DNA of 64,000 nucleotides from a virus. Every line of letters begins with the position of its first letter. Position 1 is the first letter of the stretch. A model generated the notes under the pieces. It was not told the origin of the DNA and did not search any database. It saw only the letters and a list, made by a program, of their open reading frames with translations. Where the stretch lies: positions 4,051 to 68,050 of IMG/VR virus record IMGVR_UViG_3300043438_000246. One strand, 5' to 3'. Below are positions 1-62,861 of the stretch, piece after piece. The translations under genes were made by a program, and so were the position numbers.

Positions 1-17
1 TTCGGGGGATCAATTAT

Positions 18-71
18 TTACAAAGAATAAAGAAAGCCAAATACAATCATAGCAATTAAAATAACTAACAA
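18..71 (-). CDS. 17-aa hydrophobic micropeptide (MLVILIAMIVFGFLYSL)
   Basis: TTG start directly after the upstream TAA, preceded by GAGGA; hand-translated. Confidence 0.4.
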   Translation of the reverse strand: MLVILIAMIVFGFLYSL

Positions 72-161
72 TTAATTTTCCTCAATTTCATCTAGTAATT
101 CCCAAAGTATTGGTTCTAATTCTTTAGCAACCAAATCTAATTTAGTTTGCAAGTCTTTCAT
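72..161 (-). CDS. 29-aa acidic microprotein (MKDLQTKLDLVAKELEPILWELLDEIEEN)
   Basis: ATGA overlap with upstream stop, GAGG SD; hand-translated. Confidence 0.65.
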   Translation of the reverse strand: MKDLQTKLDLVAKELEPILWELLDEIEEN

Positions 162-322
162 TCGCTAACCTCTTTCTCTAATAGTATTCCAAGAATTAAT
201 TCTAACTGTGGTGTAGTTAGTAATGCTTGGGCACAACCCCATGACCATGCTAAGTCCATGTCTCCATAGTGCTTTTTAGAAAGAGTATTTATCTGTTGAG
301 CAATCTCAAAATTAGTTTTCAT
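158..322 (-). CDS. 54-aa hypothetical microprotein (MKTNFEIAQQ...WSWGCAQALL...)
   Basis: TAATG coupling to the 322..516 gene; hand-translated. Confidence 0.7.
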   Translation of the reverse strand: MKTNFEIAQQINTLSKKHYGDMDLAWSWGCAQALLTTPQLELILGILLEKEVSE

Positions 323-516
323 TACTTTACCAACCCTTCAAACCACTGAGAGTATCCACCATTGAAGTAGACTTCATCTCCGTTGCAATTAACAAGTGTA
401 GCAGTGATTGACTCTAAATCATCATTGACATAGTGAACCTCTTTTACAAGATAGTTTGTATCGTTGGAGATAAATAGTTTTCCAACATTGGTTTTATTTA
501 TTAGTGATAGTGACAT
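322..516 (-). CDS. 64-aa hypothetical early protein
   Basis: ORF track; TAAATG coupling within the operon. Confidence 0.7.
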   Translation of the reverse strand: MSLSLINKTNVGKLFISNDTNYLVKEVHYVNDDLESITATLVNCNGDEVYFNGGYSQWFEGLVK

Positions 517-663
517 TTAGTTTTCTACTTTCTTTAATTCATGTTGATTATTAAGGGGGCGATTGTTATTGGAGAACATGGCTTCAATAACCGCTTTATC
601 TTTTATTGATTGAGCAATTCTTTTTTCTTGTTGCTCTTTAAGAATTCTATCAAAGGTACTCAT
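517..663 (-). CDS. 48-aa microprotein (MSTFDRILKEQQEKR...)
   Basis: TAATG coupling; N-terminus resembles 2215..2388. Confidence 0.7.
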   Translation of the reverse strand: MSTFDRILKEQQEKRIAQSIKDKAVIEAMFSNNNRPLNNQHELKKVEN

Positions 664-770
664 TAGTCAAAGTATCCAAATTCTCCTATGCAAGAACCAC
701 AGATACCTGAGAATTCTTGCTCATGCTTTTCGCAATAAGCGACTTTCTTATTTTCTTTAGTGTTAGTCAT
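663..770 (-). CDS. 35-aa CxxH/CxxC putative Zn-binding microprotein
   Basis: AAGAAAGG SD; first gene after the promoter at 825-846; YCEKHEQEFSGICGSC. Confidence 0.7.
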   Translation of the reverse strand: MTNTKENKKVAYCEKHEQEFSGICGSCIGEFGYFD

Positions 771-824
771 TTTTGACCTAACCTTTCTTTATCAAGAACC
801 TTTCTTGATTTTCTTTATACTGTA

Positions 825-846
825 AGTCTAACATAGACCACTGACA
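825..846 (-). promoter_or_regulatory. Leftward promoter TGTCAG-N10-TAGACT (PafBC/RecA-NDp-like)
   Basis: Minus strand reads TTTGTCAG TGGTCTATGT TAGACT; no canonical -35; same layout at 1688-1709. Confidence 0.7.
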
Positions 847-884
847 AATTAGGGACATTCTCGGGCGTGTCGGAAAAGTATTTT

Positions 885-900
885 TGTGATAACCATCACA
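885..900. promoter_or_regulatory. CRP/GlxR-type site TGTGA-N6-TCACA (perfect)
   Basis: TGTGA TAACCA TCACA. Confidence 0.6.
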
Positions 901-904
901 CTAC

Positions 905-924
905 TTATACACAGGTTATCCACA
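905..924 (+). promoter_or_regulatory. Tandem DnaA boxes
   Basis: TTATACACA gg TTATCCACA. Confidence 0.6.
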
Positions 925-960
925 GGACCCGGCATTTTTTTTATGCAGGGTACTGAATAA

Positions 961-1116
961 TTATTTATACAAATGATCCCATGCCTTGCGACACATTAAA
1001 ATGCTTTCGCAATTATTGCAACAAATAACACCATGAGGGTTTAGGTCATAGTCATACATGTCGATTGTGGTAGATACCGCACCACATACGGATTTAATTG
1101 GTACATAGGTACTCAT
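961..1116 (-). CDS. 51-aa Cys-rich microprotein
   Basis: ATGA overlap; MSTYVPIKSVCG...ICCNNCESILMCRKAW; hand-translated. Confidence 0.7.
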   Translation of the reverse strand: MSTYVPIKSVCGAVSTTIDMYDYDLNPHGVICCNNCESILMCRKAWDHLYK

Positions 1117-1223
1117 TTAGTATTCTCACTTTCTTTAGTAGCATTAGAGATAATTGTGAAAGCCTCAATGCGTTGCATTGCTCTTTTATTCTCTACGAAT
1201 TTTTTATAGTCTGTTAAGTCCAT
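1113..1223 (-). CDS. 36-aa microprotein (MDLTDYKKFVENKRAMQR...)
   Basis: TAATG coupling; hand-translated. Confidence 0.65.
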   Translation of the reverse strand: MDLTDYKKFVENKRAMQRIEAFTIISNATKESENTK

Positions 1224-1405
1224 TATTTACTCACATACCAATCTGTCCATTCAGGCAGACGCTCAGGGTCTCCGTCATAGTAGTAACGCTCAATGTTATT
1301 TTCACACATCTCACAGAAAGTGAATTGTGTATCTGCTACATCAGAGATAGCAGTTTTATTAGGGGTATGCTCTTTGCATACTGTGTTAGTTATTAGTGTT
1401 ATCAT
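1223..1405 (-). CDS. 60-aa CxxH/CxxC microprotein
   Basis: ORF track 1223..1414; the ATG at 1405 follows an AAGAAAGG SD. Confidence 0.75.
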   Translation of the reverse strand: MITLITNTVCKEHTPNKTAISDVADTQFTFCEMCENNIERYYYDGDPERLPEWTDWYVSK

Positions 1406-1471
1406 TTTTGACAACCTTTCTTTTTTTATTAGTTATTATTATTTATTAAGTTTTTTTGTTTCTCTAATTGC

Positions 1472-1636
1472 TTAGAGAGAACGACCACATGCAGAGTGGA
1501 AACAATTTCCGTCTGACTTACAGTTTTCGTGTATAGTGGCAGGTGCTAATACAACCTGACCACATTGGCAGAGGTTCATTAAACCTCTAGGGTAGTCGCT
1601 AAGTGTAGCGACTCTTGCAAAGATTGAGTTTGTCAT
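1472..1636 (-). CDS. 54-aa Cys/His-rich microprotein
   Basis: AAGAAAGGAG SD; first gene after promoter 1688-1709; LCQCG...HENC...CFHSAC. Confidence 0.75.
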   Translation of the reverse strand: MTNSIFARVATLSDYPRGLMNLCQCGQVVLAPATIHENCKSDGNCFHSACGRSL

Positions 1637-1687
1637 TTCTGACTCCTTTCTTGTTAAAGACCTTCTTTAACTTTCTTTATACTAGTA

Positions 1688-1709
1688 AGTATAACAGGGG
1701 GGTCTGACA
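1688..1709 (-). promoter_or_regulatory. Leftward promoter TGTCAG-N10-TATACT (PafBC/RecA-NDp-like)
   Basis: Minus strand reads TTTGTCAG ACCCCCCTGT TATACT. Confidence 0.7.
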
Positions 1710-1742
1710 AATTGAGGGGTACAAATCGGACATTAGAGACAT

Positions 1743-1820
1743 TGTGATGTAGAACACATGTGACGTACATCATGTGGATAAACCTGTGGATAACCCCGGT
1801 AAAATGTGATGCACATCACA
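1743..1820. promoter_or_regulatory. Cluster of three CRP-like sites and two DnaA boxes between divergent promoters
   Basis: TGTGA-N6-ACACA 1743-1758, TGTGA-N6-TCATG 1759-1774, TGTGGATAA 1773-1781 and 1785-1793, perfect TGTGA-N6-TCACA 1805-1820. Confidence 0.6.
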
Positions 1821-1841
1821 TCCAAGACACGGCGTGTCGTC

Positions 1842-1870
1842 TTGACTTTTGGGGGTATCTATGTTATACT
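1842..1870 (+). promoter_or_regulatory. SigA-type promoter TTGACT-17-TATACT with extended TG
   Basis: Near-consensus; preceded by ACGGCGTGTCG. Confidence 0.85.
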
Positions 1871-1921
1871 TGCAGTATTAGATAGTTAAAGTATAACTAC
1901 TAAAAAAGAAAGGTTCATCAA

Positions 1922-2032
1922 ATGAACACTGTTAAACTAAATGAAGTACTCGCTCAGACACCTGAGCAGACCCTAGCAGACTATGCTAGATTAGACGCAC
2001 TTATCGCTAAGGGTACCTACTCAGATAAGTGA
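1922..2032 (+). CDS. 36-aa microprotein (MNTVKLNEVLAQTPEQ...)
   Basis: AAGAAAGG SD; hand-translated. Confidence 0.7.
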   Translation: MNTVKLNEVLAQTPEQTLADYARLDALIAKGTYSDK

Positions 2033-2064
2033 CCTAAGTCACACAACGCCTACGGCGTGTCGCC

Positions 2065-2093
2065 TTGACTTTTGGCGAGGTATCTGATAGGAT
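2065..2093 (+). promoter_or_regulatory. SigA-type promoter TTGACT-17-TAGGAT with extended TG
   Basis: Imperfect direct repeat of the 1829-1870 promoter, including ACGGCGTGTCG. Confidence 0.8.
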
Positions 2094-2214
2094 ACTCCTA
2101 TAACAATTAAATAGTAACACAAATCCTAGTGAGCCCTACTAAGTAGGCAAATAACCTAGGTCAGCAAAAAGGTTAGCAAATCGCTAACTAGATTAAAAGA
2201 AAGGTGTTCATCAA

Positions 2215-2388
2215 ATGGATACACTAAACAGAATAAAGGCAGAGCAAGACCTTGCTCGCCATGAAGCACATGAGAAGGCTATGCTAAAGTCTCCTTGGAT
2301 ACGTGAAAGCGTAGAAGCCTATCGCTCAGCAGATGAGGCACAAATCGCTACTGTGGAAGCAATCCGCAAGCAATGGTATGGTTTCTAA
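2215..2388 (+). CDS. 57-aa helical microprotein (MDTLNRIKAEQDLAR...)
   Basis: AAGAAAGGTG SD; hand-translated. Confidence 0.75.
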   Translation: MDTLNRIKAEQDLARHEAHEKAMLKSPWIRESVEAYRSADEAQIATVEAIRKQWYGF

Positions 2389-2389
2389 C

Positions 2390-2473
2390 ATGACTATACT
2401 ACTCATTATCTCTCTAGTATCTTTTATCTTTATCCCTATTGGAATCTATCTAACAAACGAAGGACACATCTAA
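2390..2473 (+). CDS. 27-aa single-TM micropeptide
   Basis: MTILLIISLVSFIFIPIGIYLTNEGHI, tightly packed in the operon. Confidence 0.6.
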   Translation: MTILLIISLVSFIFIPIGIYLTNEGHI

Positions 2474-2475
2474 AA

Positions 2476-2643
2476 ATGACAATCACATACTCAATCTGGC
2501 AAGGCTCTAAACTCATCTCTATTGACAACATTGCACATGAGGTTAAGGCAATAGACCACCTCATCAACTCACTAAACGATAGTGAATTAGGCAAGGGTAA
2601 AAAGTTTACCGCAAATGTTATGGACATTAAGGTAGGTAACTAA
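2476..2643 (+). CDS. 55-aa microprotein (MTITYSIWQGSKLISID...)
   Basis: AAGGA SD, operon packing. Confidence 0.7.
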   Translation: MTITYSIWQGSKLISIDNIAHEVKAIDHLINSLNDSELGKGKKFTANVMDIKVGN

Positions 2644-2646
2644 CTC

Positions 2647-2787
2647 ATGACTATTGAATTAGACAACTATGGATTTATGTTTGACCTAGGAGATTTTATT
2701 TATGTATCTCTATCGTGGGCTATGCTAATTACTAGCGCAGTTATTTTTGCAGGGTATAAGATTTACAAAAGAAAGAAGGCTAACTAA
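2647..2787 (+). CDS. 46-aa membrane microprotein
   Basis: AAGGTAGG SD; TM segment followed by basic tail YKIYKRKK. Confidence 0.7.
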   Translation: MTIELDNYGFMFDLGDFIYVSLSWAMLITSAVIFAGYKIYKRKKAN

Positions 2788-2892
2788 ATGCTATCAGCAA
2801 TGTATGCACACACATGTGAATCATGTGGAGATACGGGTCTAATTATTTTTGACCAAGATAAAACACACATAGACCCTTGCAAATGTGAATAG
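2788..2892 (+). CDS. 34-aa CxxC/CxC Zn-ribbon-like microprotein
   Basis: TAAATG coupling; HTCESCGDTG...DPCKC. Confidence 0.7.
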   Translation: MLSAMYAHTCESCGDTGLIIFDQDKTHIDPCKCE

Positions 2893-2902
2893 GATCTAGG
2901 GT

Positions 2903-2918
2903 AGGGGGTACGCCCCCT
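2903..2918 (+). terminator. GC hairpin AGGGGG-TACG-CCCCCT closing the rightward early operon
   Basis: Perfect 6-bp stem with UACG loop, 10 nt after the stop; no U-tract. Confidence 0.45.
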
Positions 2919-3054
2919 CCCAATGGTGTGCTCACTAATTATTAACAATTCTTTTTTGAAAATCACGCATCATACAAACCAAACAAATATTCAGATTTTG
3001 CCAAAATGAAAATTTTTACAGATTTTCAGATTTGCCAGGGTATATAACTCTGGA

Positions 3055-3261
3055 TCACCATTTATCCACAGGACATTTAGCATTCTTAAGGGTAGTCTTT
3101 AAAGTCATAAAACATCCACACTTTCTACATGTTTGAGACAGTTTTCTAAAAAATGGACATCCTCTACAAATTTCAAGGCGGTATGCAACCAATTCTTCCT
3201 GGGACCTTGGTGAATTAGGATTTAATAAATCCCATGGCTTAACATCATCCTGATCTGACAT
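3055..3261 (-). CDS. Cys-rich small protein (DUF6171-like)
   Basis: RLEICRGC...CRKCGCFM..KT.L..A.CP..KW pattern; TATACT 6 nt before the ATG (leaderless). Confidence 0.75.
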   Translation of the reverse strand: MSDQDDVKPWDLLNPNSPRSQEELVAYRLEICRGCPFFRKLSQTCRKCGCFMTLKTTLKNAKCPVDKW

Positions 3262-3460
3262 ATATCCAGTATATCCTATATCACCATATATCTAATATAT
3301 AACTTTTTGTTATAATCCAGGATATTAGGCATACTAGAGAAAACTAACCTTTATTAGACATAGGGGATACTTGTATCCTTATATTGTCTATAGGGGGTTT
3401 GGGTAACTCTATTTTCGGCGGCGCTTAAATACCGTCGAATTTTAATGTTATAATTTGCAT

Positions 3461-3739
3461 ATGACCGCATACTTTAAAGATAGTCTTAGCCATACTGATC
3501 CACAGCGATTGAGCCCGAACGGAACCCACTCAGGCCTTGACTTTACAATTCAAAACTGTAATGATTCAGGTTATATATATTTGGGCGGAAACGAAAACGT
3601 GTCCTCTTCAAACTTTGGATTTAGAATTTTGCCAAACCATTCTATATCATTCGAACTACCAGGTAAGGATGCCATGTATGCAGTGGCATCGACATCTGGT
3701 ATGAACGTATCTGTAATTTATACTAGTTTGGAATTCTAA
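3461..3739 (+). CDS. Hypothetical small beta-sandwich (probably virion) protein
   Basis: ORF track; ATG 6 nt after TGTTATAAT. Confidence 0.7.
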   Translation: MTAYFKDSLSHTDPQRLSPNGTHSGLDFTIQNCNDSGYIYLGGNENVSSSNFGFRILPNHSISFELPGKDAMYAVASTSGMNVSVIYTSLEF

Positions 3740-4185
3740 TGGCTCGGTTTACACACCCCGCTTTTGGAGACATGGGTGGTCTTACAACAACAATTAACAC
3801 GTATGCTCCAGTATGGTCTGGAACTGGGCTAACTTATACAAACACTCCAGCAACTGGCTACTACATAAAAATTGGCAACTTAGTAACTATTCAAATAGAT
3901 GTTTTATTTACAACTGTCACTAACTTTGGAACTGGTCAATATTCGTTGACGCTTCCATTTGCTTCTAAATATCACACAGATGTTTATGGCGGATCTATTC
4001 ATGATGTTGTAAATCAGGGTGTAGATCATTATAGTATTAAGGGACATCTATCTCCAGCATCAACAGGTATTACAGTGTGGAATATTGGTAGTTCTGCAAA
4101 AGATGAACCATTTGATCACAATTCTCCATTTGTATTATCAACAGCAGATAAATTCCATATGTCATTTTCTTATATATGTGAATAA
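3739..4185 (+). CDS. Fibre tip-like domain protein
   Basis: GYYIKIGNLVTIQI...YSLTLPF motif typical of fibre C-terminal domains. Confidence 0.6.
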   Translation: MARFTHPAFGDMGGLTTTINTYAPVWSGTGLTYTNTPATGYYIKIGNLVTIQIDVLFTTVTNFGTGQYSLTLPFASKYHTDVYGGSIHDVVNQGVDHYSIKGHLSPASTGITVWNIGSSAKDEPFDHNSPFVLSTADKFHMSFSYICE

Positions 4186-4217
4186 TTAATCTCAAATACT
4201 GATATAATAATCTTATT

Positions 4218-4505
4218 ATGACTACTACCGATTGGGCTCAATTTATTCTTGCTTTGCTTTCAATCGGAGCGATTGTAGTTAGTTCAATTCGCTGGTATAT
4301 AAGAGTTCAAACCAAGCCAATCGCTGATGCCATAGAAGATATTAGAAAAGAAACTAAAACTAACGGCGGAACTTCTATGCGTGATGAGATTAAATTTATT
4401 AAACTTGAACAAGAAAGATCTGCTAAAACTAGAGCAGCATATAATTCTAAGTTAGATCATATGTATGAAATTCTTATAGAGTTTATATCTAAAAACTCTA
4501 AATAG
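4218..4505 (+). CDS. Single-TM membrane protein (possible holin or lysis accessory)
   Basis: N-terminal TM followed by an NGGTSMRD motif as seen in actinophage membrane proteins. Confidence 0.55.
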   Translation: MTTTDWAQFILALLSIGAIVVSSIRWYIRVQTKPIADAIEDIRKETKTNGGTSMRDEIKFIKLEQERSAKTRAAYNSKLDHMYEILIEFISKNSK

Positions 4506-4720
4506 TATATATAAAAGATATCTTAAAAACCTCTTACTTTATACTTCTTTTCTTTATATATTTAGTATACACCTTAATACCCTGGATTTCTACTTTTTAA
4601 GTAAAGTTGTTTATAACAATTTTGTAACAATTCTTAATACCCTGGGTTTATAACTTTTTGTTATCATATATATAACGTTTTGTTATAATGTAATATGTCT
4701 ATGTAATTTAATGTTATAAT
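4500..4720. repeat. AT-rich non-coding region with direct and inverted repeats
   Basis: CTTAATACCCTGG at 4573 and 4633; TATAAC-N5-GTTAT(A/C) at 4649 and 4671 (also 3298). Confidence 0.75.
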
Positions 4721-4726
4721 AAAAGC

Positions 4727-4786
4727 GCTGGCCCACTAGATTGCTCTACCCACCCCCACTGCCTCTAGTGGGTTCAGCCTTTATTT
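4727..4786 (+). ncRNA. Candidate ~55-nt hairpin sRNA with a C-rich loop
   Basis: TGTTATAAT 4712-4720; stem GCTG-G-CCCACTAGA/TCTAGTGGG-TT-CAGC; T-rich 3' tail; no ORF. Confidence 0.55.
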
Positions 4787-4804
4787 ATGGTATAATCAAT
4801 GATT

Positions 4805-5215
4805 ATGACATGTTCTTCTTGTTCCCCACAAATTCAAAAATACGGTGCAGATCCTGCCAGTGTTCAATGGAAGGTTGTGCGTGGAGACACAGCAACCCTA
4901 GAGGTTGAGTTTCTTGAGATAGACGAGACTACCCCATTTGACACCGATGGCTGGACGTATAAGGCTACTTCATACGATGCCACGGGTTCAGTGCTAGATG
5001 ACCTTCCAGTAACGGCTACAACAGGAGTTGCTATGATTACAGTAGATCCTTGCATTACTGAAAAATGGGGAACGGCATATAAAACAGTTGTAGCAGAATT
5101 ACCATTTGATTTACAAATTACTATTCCAGCAGCATCGGGAGAACCAACAGTTTGGACACCAGTTATTGGTACAATATGTGTACTAGGTGATATTACTCCA
5201 GGAGGAAGTCTATGA
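4805..5215 (+). CDS. Virion beta-sandwich adaptor protein (paralog of 5312 and 16836)
   Basis: WKVVRGDT...FDLQIT...GTI motif. Confidence 0.7.
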   Translation: MTCSSCSPQIQKYGADPASVQWKVVRGDTATLEVEFLEIDETTPFDTDGWTYKATSYDATGSVLDDLPVTATTGVAMITVDPCITEKWGTAYKTVVAELPFDLQITIPAASGEPTVWTPVIGTICVLGDITPGGSL

Positions 5216-5310
5216 CAGCACTACCGCCAGTTATAAAGATTAATGACACACGTACAAATTTTCCACCTATTGTAAAAGTAAACAATAAAGTTTTTAAGGT
5301 AAAGGGATAA
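5212..5310 (+). CDS. 32-aa microprotein with internal repeat (LPPVIKIN/FPPIVKVN)
   Basis: GGAGG SD, ATGA overlap, fills the gap exactly. Confidence 0.65.
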   Translation: MTALPPVIKINDTRTNFPPIVKVNNKVFKVKG

Positions 5311-5311
5311 C

Positions 5312-5659
5312 ATGGCATTTCCAGGTACATATAATTTTAGTTATTACAAGGGCGATACAAATGAATTTGTTATTCGTCCTAAGAATTCTTCAGGATCAGC
5401 ATTTGACCTAACTGGTTTTAGCGCTGCATTTTTTATTGCATCAGCCCGTGGAGATGATCCTGCTTTCTCAGTTGAAGCACAAGCAGTAGTCAGTGCAGTA
5501 AACGATACAGTTACTTGCACAATTTTGCCAGGTGTTGGAACAACCTTAGATGCAGGTTCATATGTTTATGACGTTCAGATCACATCTGGACCTTCTGTTA
5601 TTTATACAATAATCACAGGAACAATTTCGGTCACAGAACAAGTAACTGGAGCAGCATAA
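5312..5659 (+). CDS. Virion beta-sandwich adaptor protein
   Basis: YKGDT...FDLTG...YVYDVQI...GTISV. Confidence 0.75.
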   Translation: MAFPGTYNFSYYKGDTNEFVIRPKNSSGSAFDLTGFSAAFFIASARGDDPAFSVEAQAVVSAVNDTVTCTILPGVGTTLDAGSYVYDVQITSGPSVIYTIITGTISVTEQVTGAA

Positions 5660-6240
5660 TGACAGATGTCGTTCTAAATAACGATGATGTTACAGTTCTT
5701 GCTCCTCCAGCAATAGTTGAGGTGCTTGTAGATATTGGTCCACAGGGAACTCGTGGAAGCCAGTTTTTTGTCGGGGTAGGAAATCCAAACTCAGTAAGCA
5801 TTGGACAAACACCAAATCTAAATGATTTATATATTAATACATCTCCTGGTGGAGAACTAGGATATTTATATCAATACAGATCAGAACCTGGTGGAAATGT
5901 TTGGGTAGAAGTATTAGATATTTATCCTTCAGTATATTCAGAAAATGCACAAGTTACATTTGAGTCAGGTACTTCAGAAGTTATTATTCCAGTAGCAGAT
6001 ATTGTTACAGTTACTGGTACCCCGCTTGTTTCAGAAAATTTTAGTGTTCAGTACAGTATCGCCCATACTAATCCAGTTGCTTCAGCAATGCAGATTCCAG
6101 CCCTAGTAGGTGCAGGAGATAATCTTGTCATTAATCTTGAAGCCGTTGAGTATGCAGGCGCTGCATGGTCTGCACTAGATGAGTCAGTTACAATTCACTT
6201 CAACATTACCATTGTTGAAGCGGGATCAGTGTCATACTAG
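5659..6240 (+). CDS. Virion structural or fibre-anchoring protein
   Basis: GPQGTRGS...GNP...DLYIN motif common in fibre proteins. Confidence 0.65.
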   Translation: MTDVVLNNDDVTVLAPPAIVEVLVDIGPQGTRGSQFFVGVGNPNSVSIGQTPNLNDLYINTSPGGELGYLYQYRSEPGGNVWVEVLDIYPSVYSENAQVTFESGTSEVIIPVADIVTVTGTPLVSENFSVQYSIAHTNPVASAMQIPALVGAGDNLVINLEAVEYAGAAWSALDESVTIHFNITIVEAGSVSY

Positions 6241-6276
6241 CATCATAATATGGTATAATTTTCAAGAGGTGATCTA

Positions 6277-7656
6277 ATGGCAACAGAGTCAATTGGTACG
6301 TTAATACCAACAGCAATTCCAGGGTATACTGATTCAGCAGATATCCAAGCAGCACTACGTGCATACCACTATGGTTCATATACTTATGACCCTGCTAATA
6401 CATCACCAGCATCACTTGTAAGCCCCTCTATTGCAAAGACTATTTATGATATTGAAGCAGATATCACTGCTCTTGAAAATCGTCCTTCATCAGGTGGAGA
6501 AGTAGATGATACAGAGCCAGTACCAGCAGACTTTACACCACCAGAGATTCCAGATGGATTTATCTGGGTAGATTCAAATGGCACAGTAGGTGGACAACCA
6601 ACATCTGCAACTTCAGTATTTACAAACTCTGCTCCAACAACATCTCTTACAACTGGTGTTATTTGGGTAGATAAAGATCCAACTTCAATTACCGCAAATC
6701 CATTTATTCCAACCGCAATGATTAATGCAAAAGGTGATTTAATTGTTGGAAGCGCAGACGATGCAGCAATACGTTTAGCAGCAGCATCTACTAACGGATA
6801 TGTTCTTTCTGTAAACTCAGCAACAACATCAGGACTTGAATGGATTGTAAACGATCAAGGTGATATTACAGCGGTAACATCTGGAACTGGAATTACAGTT
6901 ACAAATGGTACAGGTCCAATACCTTCGGTTGCAATCGATACAACCGTAACAGCAGATTTAACAACGGCACAAACTTTAACAAACAAAACTTTGACAACTC
7001 CAATTATTAGTTCTATTTCTAATACTGGTGCTTTAACTTTACCAACAAGCACAGACACTTTAGTGGGCCGTGCTACAACAGATACGTTAACAAACAAAAC
7101 AGTTAACTTAACTAATAATACTTTGTCTGGTACTATTGCACAGTTTAATACAGCACTTTCAGATGCTGATTTTGCAACATTGGCAGGCACTGAAACACTT
7201 ACAAGTAAAACCTTAACCTCTCCTGCAATTAATACAGGAACAGTATCAAACTCTATTTTGGTAGGACCAGAAGAAAGATGGAATATTGTTGCAGCAGCAG
7301 CAAGTTCAACAATAGCAATTGATGCTTTGACTTCTGGTGTTTGGTATTATACTTCAAATGCAACAGCAAATCATACTCTTAATTTTAGAGGTAGTTCTTC
7401 AACTTCAATGAACACAATTTTATCAATTGGTGATTCTGTTACTATTTTGTGGTTAAACACAAATGGTGGAACAGCATACTATCCAAATGTTTATCAAGTA
7501 GATGGAACTACATCTGGAGTTACAGTAAACTGGTCTGGTGGAACCGCACCAACTGCAGGCAATGCTTCAGGTATTGATGTATATTCTTTTACAATTGTAA
7601 AAACAGCAAATGCAACATTTAGAGTATTAGCAGCAGGGGCGGTAAAATACGCATGA
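6277..7656 (+). CDS. Fibre stalk protein with TLTNKT repeats (cassette 1)
   Basis: KGDLIVG motif, TLTNKTLT repeats, C-terminal W.GG.AP...GIDVYSF domain. Confidence 0.8.
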   Translation: MATESIGTLIPTAIPGYTDSADIQAALRAYHYGSYTYDPANTSPASLVSPSIAKTIYDIEADITALENRPSSGGEVDDTEPVPADFTPPEIPDGFIWVDSNGTVGGQPTSATSVFTNSAPTTSLTTGVIWVDKDPTSITANPFIPTAMINAKGDLIVGSADDAAIRLAAASTNGYVLSVNSATTSGLEWIVNDQGDITAVTSGTGITVTNGTGPIPSVAIDTTVTADLTTAQTLTNKTLTTPIISSISNTGALTLPTSTDTLVGRATTDTLTNKTVNLTNNTLSGTIAQFNTALSDADFATLAGTETLTSKTLTSPAINTGTVSNSILVGPEERWNIVAAAASSTIAIDALTSGVWYYTSNATANHTLNFRGSSSTSMNTILSIGDSVTILWLNTNGGTAYYPNVYQVDGTTSGVTVNWSGGTAPTAGNASGIDVYSFTIVKTANATFRVLAAGAVKYA

Positions 7657-58253: not shown

Positions 58254-61200
58254 ATGAATTATGTAGGTTTGCACGTCCATACACACTACTCCTTAATGGA
58301 TGGTGTTGCTACTCCAGAAGAATACGTTAACCGAGCAGTTGAACTTGGTATGCCAGCATTGGCTATCACAGATCATGGTTCTTTATCTGGGCATAGGGAA
58401 CTGCACCGTATTGCAAAAGCAAAGGGCATCAAACCAATTCTTGGCGTAGAAGGCTATATGACAAGGGATATGAATGACAAGAGAGCAAAGGCAGAACGTA
58501 CTGATCCTCTTGATTTGAATTATCATCATATAGTTCTTCTCGCTAAGAATCAAACAGGTCTAGAAAACTTAAACAAGATTAATGAAATTGCTTGGACAGA
58601 AGGATTTTTTAGTAAGCCAAGATTTGATTTTGATGTATTAAAAAAGTATAAAGAAGGACTTGTTGTTACATCTGGCTGCCTTAGTGGTTGGATTGCCAAG
58701 GCGGTAGAACTAGGTGAACTGGCAACTGCAAAGCGACATATGCAATGGTTTAAAGATGAGTTTGGTGATGACTATTATATTGAAGTAATGCCACACAACT
58801 CTGCTGAAATCAATAAAGGTATTATTGAACTTGCAGATGCTCTTAAGATTAAGATTGTTGTAACTCCAGACTGCCATCACTCTGATCCAAGTCAAAAAGA
58901 AATTCAAGAATTGATGCTTATTCTTAATACTCATGCTAAGTTGGAAAAAGATGCAACTTATGAGAAGTCTAAGAAAAAAGAAACATTTATGGATAGACTT
59001 GATTATTTATATGGCGCAGACCGTATGATGAGTTTTAATAAGTTTGATATACATTTGCTTTCATATGAAGAGATGAAGGCTGCCATGCTAAAGCAGGGCA
59101 TTGATCGTGAAGATATGTTTACATCTACTATAGAAATTGCCAACAAGGTAGAAGACTATGACATTAAAGAAGGACTAAATCTACTACCAGTGCAATATCC
59201 AAAGCCAGGTTTAGAGTTAAAGAAACTTGCTATGGAAGGACTTAAAGAACGTGGTCTTGAGGGTAAGCAAGACTATATTGATAGACTTGATGAAGAGTTA
59301 ACAATTATTAATGATAAAAACTTTGCACCTTACTTCTTAGTGGTTCGCAACATGCTTAACTGGGCAAAGAAAGAAGACATTATGGTTGGTCCAGGACGTG
59401 GATCATCTGCTGGTTCTTTGCTTTGCTACACACTTGGTATTACAGATATTGATCCACTTAAGCACGGACTTTTGTTCTTTCGATTTATTAATCCAGAACG
59501 TAATGACTTTCCTGATATTGATACAGATATTCAAGATTCAAGACGTGATGAAGTTAAAGACTATTTAGTTAGACAGTATAGACATGTTGCATCTATTGCT
59601 ACCTTCTTGCAATTTAAAGATAAAGGTGTTGTGCGAGATGTTGCTCGTGCACTTAACATTCCATTGCCAGATGTTAACAAGGTTCTTAAAACCGTAGATA
59701 CTTGGGATGACTACTGTGGTTCAAGAAATGCTGCTTGGTTTAGAGAAAAATATCCAGAAGTAGAACTATACGGAGACCAACTCCGTGGTCGTATTAGAGG
59801 AACTGGTATCCATGCTGCTGGTGTTGTTACTAGCAAGGATCCAATATTTAAGTATGCTCCACTAGAGACACGCTCCGTGACTGGAAGCGATACAAGAATT
59901 CCAGTTGTTGCTGTAGATATGGAAGAAGCAGAAAAGATTGGTCTAATTAAAATTGATGCACTTGGACTTAAAACTCTTAGTGTTCTCAAGGATACTTTAG
60001 ACATGATCCAAGAAAGAGATAAGAAAAAGATTAATCTACTAGAGATTGACATGGATGACAAGAATGTTTATCAGATGCTTTCTGATGGATATACAAAGGG
60101 TGTCTTCCAGTGTGAAGCAGCACCTTATACAAACCTTTTAATTAAAATGGGTGTAAAGAATTTATCAGAACTTGCTGCATCAAATGCTCTAGTTCGCCCA
60201 GGTGCTATGAACACAATTGGTAAAGACTACATTGCTCGTAAACATGGTCGTCAAAACATTGACTATACTCATAGTATCTTAAAAGAATTTACGGAGGATA
60301 CTTATGGCTGCATTCTTTACCAAGAACAAGTTATGCAAACATGCGTACAACTTGGCGGTATGTCCATGTCGGAAGCAGATAAAGTTAGAAAGATCATTGG
60401 AAAGAAGAAGGATGCTAAGGAATTTGACGAGTTCAAAGACAGGTTTATCAAAGGTGCTTCTGCCTATATTGCTCCCAATCAGGCTCTTGATTTATGGCAT
60501 GACTTTGAAGCACATGCGGGATACTCGTTCAACAAGTCTCATGCGGTTGCTTACTCTACGCTCTCGTATTGGACGGCGTGGCTAAAGTATCACTATCCTT
60601 TAGAGTTCATGTTTGCACTACTAAAGAATGAAAAAGATAAGGACACAAGAACTGAATATCTAATTGAGGCAAAAAGAATGGGAATAACAGTTAAGTTACC
60701 TCATATTAATGACTCAGACAAAGATTTTAAAATTGAGGGTAAGGGAATTAGATTTGGCTTATCAGCCATTAAGTTTATTTCTGATACTATTGCAGATAGA
60801 TACATACAGGGTAGACCATTTAAAACATTTAAAGAAGTAGAAGAATTTACTTTTACAAAAGGTCATGGTGTAAATAGCCGTGCACTAAACTCAATGAGGG
60901 CGGTAGGAGCATTAACATTTCCTGATAATCCTGCTAATCCAGATGAAGTAAAAGAAAACTTATATGAGTATCTAAATCTTCCTGAATTTAATACATCTAT
61001 TCCACAACACTATTACGCATATTTAAATGATGTAGAAGAGTATGAGGAAAAAGGAGCCTTCATTTTAATGGGTATGGTAAAATCAATTAAGAGAAGCAAA
61101 GGTTGGTCAAGGGTAGAGTTGTTAGATAAAACAGGATCTGTTGGTATTTTTGATGATGAAAATACAATGATTGAGGCTGGACGTACATACATTGTATTAG

Positions 61201-61529
61201 TTAATGATAATAGAATTGTTTCAGCAGTTCCAGCAGATGAAGTAAAAGAATCAAAGGATGCCTTAGTTAAATTCTTAAATTATAAAATGCTTCCATTTAA
61301 AGAAGGAGAGCATTTTGTAGTTTCATTTAAGCCAAGAATTACGAAGACTGGAAAGAAGATGGCATCTCTTACACTAGCAGATTCAGGCAGAGAACTACAT
61401 GCGATTACTGTATTCCCAACCTCATTTGCAAAAGCATACATGAGTATTGAAGCAGGAAATGTTTATAACTTTAAATTTGGTAAAACAAAAGATGGAACAG
61501 TGATTATGGAGGATGTATCAAATGTTTGA
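58254..61529 (+). CDS. dnaE: DNA polymerase III alpha subunit
   Basis: HVHTHYSLMDG, TDHG, GRGSSAGS, PDIDTD, HAAGVV, KIDALGL, YQEQ, YSFNKSH. Confidence 0.97.
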   Translation: MNYVGLHVHTHYSLMDGVATPEEYVNRAVELGMPALAITDHGSLSGHRELHRIAKAKGIKPILGVEGYMTRDMNDKRAKAERTDPLDLNYHHIVLLAKNQTGLENLNKINEIAWTEGFFSKPRFDFDVLKKYKEGLVVTSGCLSGWIAKAVELGELATAKRHMQWFKDEFGDDYYIEVMPHNSAEINKGIIELADALKIKIVVTPDCHHSDPSQKEIQELMLILNTHAKLEKDATYEKSKKKETFMDRLDYLYGADRMMSFNKFDIHLLSYEEMKAAMLKQGIDREDMFTSTIEIANKVEDYDIKEGLNLLPVQYPKPGLELKKLAMEGLKERGLEGKQDYIDRLDEELTIINDKNFAPYFLVVRNMLNWAKKEDIMVGPGRGSSAGSLLCYTLGITDIDPLKHGLLFFRFINPERNDFPDIDTDIQDSRRDEVKDYLVRQYRHVASIATFLQFKDKGVVRDVARALNIPLPDVNKVLKTVDTWDDYCGSRNAAWFREKYPEVELYGDQLRGRIRGTGIHAAGVVTSKDPIFKYAPLETRSVTGSDTRIPVVAVDMEEAEKIGLIKIDALGLKTLSVLKDTLDMIQERDKKKINLLEIDMDDKNVYQMLSDGYTKGVFQCEAAPYTNLLIKMGVKNLSELAASNALVRPGAMNTIGKDYIARKHGRQNIDYTHSILKEFTEDTYGCILYQEQVMQTCVQLGGMSMSEADKVRKIIGKKKDAKEFDEFKDRFIKGASAYIAPNQALDLWHDFEAHAGYSFNKSHAVAYSTLSYWTAWLKYHYPLEFMFALLKNEKDKDTRTEYLIEAKRMGITVKLPHINDSDKDFKIEGKGIRFGLSAIKFISDTIADRYIQGRPFKTFKEVEEFTFTKGHGVNSRALNSMRAVGALTFPDNPANPDEVKENLYEYLNLPEFNTSIPQHYYAYLNDVEEYEEKGAFILMGMVKSIKRSKGWSRVELLDKTGSVGIFDDENTMIEAGRTYIVLVNDNRIVSAVPADEVKESKDALVKFLNYKMLPFKEGEHFVVSFKPRITKTGKKMASLTLADSGRELHAITVFPTSFAKAYMSIEAGNVYNFKFGKTKDGTVIMEDVSNV

Positions 61530-61845
61530 TCAGTTAGCAGATGAATTACACAAAGACGCAATTAATAAAGGCTTTTGGCCACCAGAAGAAGAAGTTGATG
61601 ATATCTTTATTGCTAAGCAGTGCATGATGATTGTTTCAGAAGTAACTGAGGTTATGGAAGCAATTCGTAAAGATAAAGGTGAGGAAGAAATCACAAAAGA
61701 GTTTGCAGATATTCTTATTCGCACACTAGATCTTTATGCTGGAGTAGTAAATGCAGGGTACACAAAACTTTCACTAGATCATGCCCTTATAGAAAAGGTA
61801 GAGTTTAATAGAACTCGTCCAGAAAAGCATGGGGTAAGATTCTAA
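61522..61845 (+). CDS. MazG-like NTP pyrophosphohydrolase
   Basis: SEVTEVMEA.RK...EFADILIR.LD, K..FN..RP.KHG. Confidence 0.85.
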   Translation: MFDQLADELHKDAINKGFWPPEEEVDDIFIAKQCMMIVSEVTEVMEAIRKDKGEEEITKEFADILIRTLDLYAGVVNAGYTKLSLDHALIEKVEFNRTRPEKHGVRF

Positions 61846-62861
61846 TGGTAGTAACAATAGAAGATGTGCTAGCACAATTAAATCCAAAATTACGAAAGAC
61901 AGTAATGGCTGGAGACACAATTCCAGCAACGCAATATGCAGCAACACCTAGTTTTGGTTTAAACAAGGCTTTAAACGGAGGCCTACCATATGGCCGACAA
62001 GTGCTTATATGGGGCTCTAAGTCCTCTGCAAAGTCTTCTCTATGCCTTCAGATGATTGGCTTGGCACAAAAAGAAGGAAAGATTTGTGCTTGGATTGATG
62101 CTGAAATGTCATATGATAAAAAGTGGGCAGAAGGTCTTGGGGTAGATACATCAAAACTTATTGTTTCACAATGTAGAACAATTAATGAAATGGTAGACAT
62201 TGGTACTAGTCTAATGAACGCTGGTGTAGATATGGTAGTTGTTGATAGTATTACATCACTATTGCCAGCAATTTACTTTGAAAAGGATTCTGATGAACTT
62301 AAGCAACTTGAAAATACAAAACAAATTGGTGCCGAGTCTCGTGATTTTAGCAACGCATGGAAGATGATTAACTATGCTAATAATAAAGTTAAGCCAACTC
62401 TTTTTGTACTTATTAGTCAAAGCCGTAATAATATTAGCGCTATGTATACTAGCCAGCAGCCTACTGGTGGTCAGGCTACTAAGTTCTATTCTTCTACGGT
62501 TATTAAATTGTTTTCTTCAGAATCAGACAATCAAGCAATTAAGGGGAAGATTAATGTTGGTGACAAACTTATTGAAGAAAAGATTGGTCGCAAAGTTCGC
62601 TGGGAGTTACAGTTCTCTAAAACATCTCCTGGTTTTCAAAATGGCGAGTATGACTTTTATTTTAGAGGCGATAACATTGGCATTGATGCTATTGGTGATC
62701 TTGTTGATACAGCAGAACTAGCAGGTCTTGTAACAAGAACAGGCGCTTGGTATCAACTTGAAGATGGAACAAAAGTACAAGGCAGAGAAGGCTTTATTAA
62801 TAGAGTAAGAGAAGACCTTGACTTGCAAAAGTCATTAAAGGATAAACTATTAAATGGCTGA
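61845..62861 (+). CDS. recA: RecA/UvsX-family recombinase
   Basis: L.GGLP.GR, WIDAE, VVVDSI, ISQ.R, TGG.A.KFYSS, GAWY, QGRE. Confidence 0.92.
   Translation: MVVTIEDVLAQLNPKLRKTVMAGDTIPATQYAATPSFGLNKALNGGLPYGRQVLIWGSKSSAKSSLCLQMIGLAQKEGKICAWIDAEMSYDKKWAEGLGVDTSKLIVSQCRTINEMVDIGTSLMNAGVDMVVVDSITSLLPAIYFEKDSDELKQLENTKQIGAESRDFSNAWKMINYANNKVKPTLFVLISQSRNNISAMYTSQQPTGGQATKFYSSTVIKLFSSESDNQAIKGKINVGDKLIEEKIGRKVRWELQFSKTSPGFQNGEYDFYFRGDNIGIDAIGDLVDTAELAGLVTRTGAWYQLEDGTKVQGREGFINRVREDLDLQKSLKDKLLNG

Follow-up and report, generated by a model that had tools for sequence, protein, structure and literature searches.

Promoters that depend on the actinobacterial regulator PafBC carry the motif tGTCgg(N10)tA(N3)T, in which a hexamer at -28 to -23 is followed after ten nucleotides (nt) by the -10 box and a -35 element is absent (Müller et al., Sci Adv 2021, PMC8635444). 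According to the same report, PafBC is located between sigma region 4 and the DNA; the helix-turn-helix (HTH) motif of PafB contacts positions -23 to -28, and its residues R46 and R50 read the two guanines of GTC (PMC8635444). The signal that activates PafBC is single-stranded DNA (ssDNA; PMC11804915). Considered here are two leftward promoters, P1 and P2, that resemble this motif and lie in a viral DNA stretch of 64,000 nt (the window), which comprises bases 4051-68050 of the 68,050-bp linear virus contig IMGVR_UViG_3300043438_000246, rated 63% complete. They belong to a promoter class of at least six leftward units, each with an invariant TGTCAG, a G/C-rich start of the spacer, TGn, a TAnnnT box, a ribosome-binding site about 33 nt further on, and tiny genes. 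We lean, with some reserve, towards host RNA polymerase with the housekeeping sigma factor SigA, together with host PafBC, as the reader of this class, which would tie an arm of small phage genes to the ssDNA alarm of the host.

In phage T4, the middle promoters combine a sigma-70 -10 box with a MotA box that lies near -30, ~12 nt further upstream, and AsiA and MotA appropriate the sigma factor. The promoters described here are alike in that an upstream box, fixed in its register, takes the place of the -35 element while the host sigma factor is proposed to read the -10 box, but both the sequence of the box and its spacing differ, and the likely reader here is a host protein. MotA_activ was matched in none of six genomes, a search that shows little since the control was silent too; AsiA was not searched for. 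Phage factors of the MotA/AsiA kind are mentioned in the work on PafBC promoters (PMC8635444). BrxR and CapW of phage-defence islands (PMC9122601, PMC9122588) link ssDNA-sensing WYL regulators to phage infection; as these are described, they are mostly repressors that act at palindromic operators beside their own genes, and not sigma adaptors with a -26 element. Among the papers listed for PafBC or RecA-NDp together with phage, no description of a PafBC-type promoter in a phage was found. A 2025 study by Rafique et al. in ACS Infect Dis is said, where it is cited (PMC12848934), to link pafBC to phage resistance.

On the minus strand, positions 825-850 of the window (P2) read AATTTGTCAG-TGGTCTATGT-TAGACT and positions 1688-1713 (P1) read AATTTGTCAG-ACCCCCCTGT-TATACT, and in both TGTCAG and the TAnnnT box are exactly 10 nt apart (Table 1). 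Re-reading these bases confirmed an earlier annotation of the stretch (the original prediction), which had given the two sites, their sequences and their spacing. That annotation had also likened them to the PafBC consensus, a likeness that holds at each point: both window sites have a hexamer of the form tGTC(g/a)g at -28 to -23, N10 to a TAnnnT box and no -35 element, equal to the published motif (PMC8635444). CTCAAT and CCTAAT occupy the 17-nt spacing, so that the absence of a canonical -35 stands as predicted, and the TTGACA-like hexamer 16-18 nt from the -10 box that marks a canonical sigma-70/SigA promoter is found in neither P1 nor P2. Each site also has TG at -15/-14, that is, an extended -10 element, which had not been stressed before. 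A parsing in which TTGTCA serves as the -35 element of a second -10 box seven bases on was rejected because only P2 (with TACAGT) fits it, one of six sites. As judged from its bases, the architecture is that of the actinobacterial PafBC-dependent hybrid promoter ('-26 element plus -10', RecA-NDp).

The decisive signal for the motif comes from outside the window and not from counts within it. TGTCRG-N10-TAnnnT occurs twice in the window, where 1.10 are expected and 30 of 100 shuffles give at least 2, which is chance level; the longer 26-nt pattern common to both sites is found twice against 0.25 expected, a count reached by 3 of 100 shuffles. The genome-wide count proposed with the original prediction was made on the whole contig, where TGTCAG-N10-TAnnnT occurs seven times against 1.01 expected, a number reached by none of 300 simulated sequences of the same dinucleotide composition (maximum 4); TG-bearing sites number six against 0.043 expected (simulation maximum 1). 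All seven lie on the minus strand within the first 5.8 kb, at contig positions 5759, 4896, 3844, 3012, 2947, 1408 and 503, and the four further TG-bearing promoters (3844, 3012, 1408 and 503) are to the left of the window. At 2947, TG is missing and the site extends over a start codon (ATG TCA G..); this site is probably a chance match. The hexamer is TGTCAG in all six intergenic contig sites. Site 1408 shares bases with the first ATG of a GP88-family gene; since the Pfam match begins only at residue 19, the true start of this gene is uncertain. A scan with the sigma-70 consensus gave no enrichment (19 sites against 22.8 expected).

Relatives were found by searching a viral collection with a strict pattern drawn from the two window sites, TTTGTCAG-N7-TGTTANACTTAC, which matched 55 stretches from 54 viral contigs. 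These stretches, with a guanine-plus-cytosine (GC) content of 34-40%, contain 332 TGTCAG-N10-TAnnnT sites in 557,496 bases; 51 of the 55 have at least two, mainly in runs on one strand. After sites less than 60 nt from the end of a locus were dropped and identical cores merged (336 sites to 262 unique sites to 232 unique cores), the logo reads A-W-W-TGTCAG-(T/A)-S-S-c-n-n-a-T-G-n-TA-n-A-(A/C)-T-T-A, with T in 76% and G in 77% of the 232 sites at -15/-14 and no information at -35; P1 and P2 match it. The register is equally strict: among 802 extended -10 boxes, TGTCAG stands at a spacer of 10 in 146, no other spacing is enriched, variants of the hexamer with one mismatch number just 4, and TGTCGG is not seen once. 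A Shine-Dalgarno sequence and the start of an open reading frame (ORF) of at least 30 amino acids (aa) lie within 120 nt of 273 of the 316 sites with sufficient flank, compared with 139 of 660 random positions, and the distance from promoter to gene start has a median of 33 nt (interquartile range 30-38), so that the promoter call of the original prediction now rests on recurrent promoter-like units ahead of genes. In five near-complete relatives (88-100% complete, 95-115 kb) there are 13, 16, 8, 11 and 13 sites, against 1, 0, 0, 1 and 1 for the reversed pattern, and in each genome they are clustered in a single 2-14-kb arm, with a few scattered elsewhere.

Because of the enrichment in relatives, the fixed register, the gene-start distance and the clustering in one arm, the sites are taken as one real promoter class serving a single part of the genome. 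An origin by chance, or as a DNA repeat without any role as a promoter, would agree with the chance-level count of the loose motif in the window alone; such an origin is hardly credible in view of strong enrichment on one strand and in one arm, with a fixed register and a constant gene-start distance over 55 stretches, and an Rfam scan of contig 1-7000 gave no match at E up to 0.1.

The frequent extended -10 element raises the question of whether SigA polymerase needs a partner at these sites. It might act alone through that element, TGTCAG being left for another factor, such as a repressor for the timing or silencing of the arm, or for direct contact with polymerase. Actinobacterial promoters often lack a -35 element, about 77% of the phage sites have TG at -15/-14, and their TAnA(A/C)T boxes are good. 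An asymmetric 6-bp element held in one exact register (spacer 10, 146 cases) is nevertheless typical of a factor bound to polymerase, and a dimeric repressor usually binds a palindrome, unlike TGTCAG; nor is the element a general feature of host promoters, since actinobacterial genomes of 1.3-1.4 Mb have 10-16 loose matches each. Action of SigA polymerase alone is accordingly considered quite improbable.

The phage belongs to a group of low-GC uncultured actinophages and not to the mycobacteriophages, an assignment made from sequence on the grounds of GC content, portal kinship, gene order and WhiB. A mycobacteriophage origin with M. smegmatis as host, assumed in the original prediction, was rejected: GC is 35-44% per 4-kb bin and about 38% overall, a megablast search with the first 6 kb as query gave no match among 50,697 phage records, and the relatives are uncultured viruses at 34-40% GC. 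The structural genes are closest to those of actinophages. Over 97-98% of its length, the portal protein shares 44-45% identity with those of Streptomyces phages of Stanwilliamsviridae; its identity with those of five motif-bearing relatives is 73, 70, 70, 69 and 54%. The Streptomyces phage Bmoc of this family (cluster BE, NC_055842) has the same layout: a leftward small-gene arm comes first, followed by ribonucleotide reductase, portal, protease, capsid and a very long tape measure. The present group differs from these Streptomyces phages in GC content and habitat, and from Bmoc in the motif, which is not enriched there. Pfam and PHROGs searches of 38 distinct contig ORFs matched GP88, DUF6171, DNA polymerase III alpha (Pol III alpha), DnaB, DnaG and RecA, together with ribonucleotide reductase, a lysozyme-like protein, an Mtd_N-domain protein and virion proteins. 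The phage thus encodes its own RecA (window 61845-62861, plus strand) and a DnaE-type Pol III alpha (58254-61529, plus strand), besides DnaB and DnaG.

WhiB is regarded as confined to Actinobacteriota and is used as an actinophage marker (PMC10202952). It was found in all four relatives searched, each at least 90% complete, and was not found in the present contig (63% complete). The WhiB of one relative matches 196 phage records, all from phages with Streptomyces, Mycobacterium, Rhodococcus, Propionibacterium or Thermobifida as hosts. Portal kinship and WhiB together uphold the actinobacterial setting of the original prediction, in which the lineage infects members of the phylum that owns PafBC. 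An attempt to reach the host through WhiB failed: the five genome matches, 66-74% identical, fall in metagenome-assembled genomes (MAGs) labelled Polynucleobacter, Chitinophagaceae, Methylococcus, Beijerinckiaceae and Aquiluna, and their WhiB-bearing contigs are most likely mis-binned phage contigs; one such MAG was used solely to gain access to the genome of an actinobacterium. The two Planktophila phages in culture are of 39 kb and belong to another family (PMC10202952).

None of these phages has a recognisable WYL or sigma protein. The WYL domain was matched neither in this contig nor in five relatives, four of them at least 90% complete, which leaves the phage-encoded WYL protein that had been suggested to lie outside the window without a counterpart in the rest of the contig or in any of the five. 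HTH_PafC and Sigma70_r2 were each matched in none of five phage genomes, and no regulator was found among the 38 distinct contig ORFs by Pfam and PHROGs. No T7-like RNA polymerase was matched in the phages, but no control genome matched either, so that little is shown by this search.

A non-WYL adaptor made by the phage could instead read TGTCAG; it would be expressed from canonical -35/-10 promoters nearby and would make the TGTCAG sites 'middle' promoters in the style of T4 MotA/AsiA. A true -35/-10 class does exist beside the TGTCAG sites, as a two-step cascade expects (Table 1), the phage hexamer is stricter than that of host sites, and dozens of tiny ORFs belong to no family, so that a DNA-binding adaptor could lie among them in unrecognised form; the lack of motif enrichment in the nearest cultured kin would make this a lineage-specific trait. 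Set against these points are the absence of WYL, HTH_PafC and sigma domains from five to six phage genomes and the empty search for MotA, although the latter had a silent control. The motif, moreover, agrees in every base and in register with one already read by the host phylum, and it stands before recA in candidate host lineages. A host reader is accordingly the simpler account, and a phage adaptor is considered unlikely.

On the host side, an actinobacterial MAG (G006) encodes tandem WYL/WCX proteins of 312 and 316 aa, corresponding to PafB/PafC, one of them with HTH_PafC. The WYL domain was found in 299 of 301 sampled genomes of the same class, a tally that includes eight genomes flagged as unpublished (G012, G020, G029, G035, G037, G041, G048 and G268) on which no further result depends, and PafB was found in five of five small genomes (1.3-1.4 Mb). 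PafB of one small genome, G145, was matched at E 6e-39 to 7p5x_AY, the PafB chain in the structure of PafBC with polymerase (7P5X), and both DNA-reading arginines, R46 and R50, are preserved in an identical RMFERDK stretch. The search for WYL/PafBC genes proposed earlier thus found them in sampled actinobacterial genomes and not in the phages.

In small actinobacterial genomes, recA is preceded by this motif. In G145 (GC 44-51%), TGTCAGTGGCACCTGCTACCTT followed by tcgaac lies ~150 nt before recA, and this upstream site is nearly unchanged in 8 of 12 small genomes; a second G145 site with tcgaac precedes a DUF6504 gene and another precedes carD. Thirteen of the 15 G145 sites were examined (562380 and 709713 were left out), and in five of the 13 the distance from the end of the site to an ATG is exactly 6 nt, consistent with leaderless transcripts. 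G136 has a site whose end lies 6 nt ahead of a gene that is RadA-like by eye only. Nine of the 15 G145 sites are packed into ~31 kb (439.6-470.8 kb), and a tenth lies at 489 kb. This region (G145:C1:439000-471000, L078 and L079) has a lower GC of 44-46%; its sites, several of them leaderless by appearance, stand before genes for two TPR proteins, a trypsin-like peptidase and a C5 DNA methylase, and before unknown genes. It may be a PafBC-controlled variable or defence island. Similar motif clusters are seen in six other small genomes.

Compared with the PafBC-dependent promoters described by Müller et al. (PMC8635444), the promoters of this group are alike in TGTC(A/G)G at -28 to -23, N10, TAnnnT, the lack of a -35 element and a housekeeping sigma factor as the proposed reader. 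They differ in being carried by a phage, in numbering 6-16 per genome within one arm, and in preceding tiny genes of unknown function, not repair genes; in addition, the fifth base of the hexamer is always A and the -10 box is mostly extended. G/C-rich bases just 3' of the hexamer are found in phage and host sites; the phage hexamer is followed mainly by T/A and then C/G C/G, that of host sites commonly by TG.

If host SigA polymerase and host PafBC read these promoters, SigA would recognise the -10 box, and a PafB/PafC heterodimer, activated by ssDNA and placed between sigma region 4 and the DNA, would read the GTC of the hexamer ('sigma adaptation'). The small-gene arm would then fire on the DNA alarm of the host, raised by incoming or replicating phage DNA or by damage, and would presumably be expressed early. 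Several observations weigh against this. PafBC is assumed to be present in the true host from its near-universal presence in the class. Portal matches of lower rank include phages of Burkholderia (65 records), Vibrio (37 records) and others, and the portal alone leaves the host phylum unfixed. Host sites use both TGTCAG and TGTCGG, even at orthologous positions, while the phage sites never use the latter (146 vs 0), from which a stricter and different reader could follow. An extended -10 element, as in ~77% of the phage sites, can act without an upstream factor, and sites 3012 and 503 have weak -35-like hexamers (TTGATA and TTGAAA) at 18 nt. The Streptomyces phage Bmoc, the nearest cultured kin, has 3 sites against 3 for the control, and most ORFs of the phages are tiny and match no family. 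Finally, the loose motif is weakly enriched in 12 small actinobacterial genomes (163 sites vs 121 for the control), so that the host case rests on particular conserved sites, not on counts.

Behind each window promoter come a leader, a ribosome-binding site and then four ORFs of 35-64 aa, none of which matched a PHROGs family; several of the four ORFs behind P1 are cysteine-rich. The two leaders contain hairpins of equal shape and at equal distance from the -10 box, with different stems (GUUAAAGA/UCUUUAAC in P1 and AUCAAGAA/UUCUUGAU in P2). In one metatranscriptome run, available as assembled contigs, 29% of the sampled words of the sequence were present and the small-gene arm was covered by many variant contigs; this is no evidence of transcription because the contigs lack starts, strand and level, and the library may include DNA.

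Table 1. Promoters, genes and associated elements at the left end of the window (window coordinates; a full stop marks a feature without strand)
Feature	Position	Strand	Details
Promoter P1	1688..1709	-	TGTCAG (-26 element) 1709-1704; spacer ACCCCCCTGT; extended -10 TG 1696-1695; TATACT 1693-1688
Genes behind P1 (four tiny ORFs)	961..1636	-	1472-1636, 54 aa; 1223-1405, 60 aa; 1113-1223, 36 aa; 961-1116, 51 aa
Hairpin in 5' leader of P1	1653..1671	-	8 pairs, loop AGG, -6.3 kcal/mol, z -1.86
Promoter P2	825..846	-	TGTCAG 846-841; spacer TGGTCTATGT; TG 833-832; -10 box TAGACT 830-825
Genes behind P2 (four tiny ORFs)	158..770	-	663-770, 35 aa; 517-663, 48 aa; 322-516, 64 aa; 158-322, 54 aa
Hairpin in 5' leader of P2	791..809	-	8 pairs, loop AGG, -6.5 kcal/mol, z -2.78
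Second-class rightward promoter	1832..1870	+	GCGTGTCG, 2 nt, TTGACT, 17 nt, TATACT with TG; canonical -35/-10
Second-class rightward promoter, second copy	2055..2093	+	GCGTGTCG, 2 nt, TTGACT, 17 nt, TAGGAT with TG
Palindrome TGTGAT-N4-ATCACA	1805..1820	.	upstream of P1
Palindrome TGTGAT-N4-ATCACA	885..900	.	upstream of P2

The second promoter class in the region is marked by GCGTGTCG, of which the contig has six copies: those of the two rightward promoters in Table 1, one at window 865-872 (plus strand), and three on the minus strand at contig 4027, 3980 and 3113. The 55 related stretches contain 157 copies, and 49 of these are followed at 1-3 nt by a canonical TTGnnn-N16-18-TAnnnT promoter, for example TTGACT-17-TATACT; several copies coincide in part with the descending arm of a G/C-rich hairpin. 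Such a -35/-10 class fits a two-step programme, whether the TGTCAG sites are read by host PafBC or by a phage adaptor. Two further canonical promoters were observed to the left of the window. At contig 1507-1542 (minus strand), TTGCTA-17-TAAAAT has its end 6 nt upstream of the ATG of a 46-aa ORF, which suggests a leaderless transcript, and this ORF overlaps the TGTCAG promoter at 1408. At contig 3850-3935 (minus strand), an ORF-free stretch with two direct copies of CAGTGAGCCTAGC(A/G)AATAAATG is placed between TTGCTT-17-TATACT and the TGTCAG promoter at 3844; it may code for a small RNA or contain a binding array.

Perfect TGTGA-N6-TCACA palindromes occur twice in the window against 0.14 expected, and similar palindromes are seen upstream of promoters to the left of it. 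We take this pattern to be the consensus of CRP/GlxR-type regulators of actinobacteria, which makes such a regulator a candidate only. Four perfect TTATCCACA words lie in the first 3.1 kb of the window, at 916-924 (plus), 1773-1781 (minus), 1785-1793 (minus) and 3062-3070 (plus), against 0.86 expected, a count of four being reached by 1 of 100 shuffles; the word is presumably the DnaA-box consensus, and the copies could mark an origin or a regulatory site.

A large and widespread group of uncultured aquatic actinophages carries 8-16 copies of this promoter in one arm, and no WYL protein is recognised in it. If host PafBC is the reader, these phages would tap the nucleic-acid sensor of the host to time their own genes, which would join the field of WYL regulators and DNA damage with that of phage-host conflict in the most abundant freshwater actinobacteria. 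More than 200 natural variants of the promoter would then provide a ready set for the study of sigma adaptation. A wider and more tentative possibility is that phage and host share one 'alarm' promoter: the phage would have put an arm of tiny takeover or anti-defence genes under the ssDNA-sensing PafBC that the host would use for recA and for a variable island encoding DNA methylase, TPR proteins and protease. Foreign or damaged DNA, once sensed by the cell, would then set off the arm, and attack and defence would compete for one sigma adaptor; such a phage would be the first described to exploit sigma adaptation by a host WYL activator.

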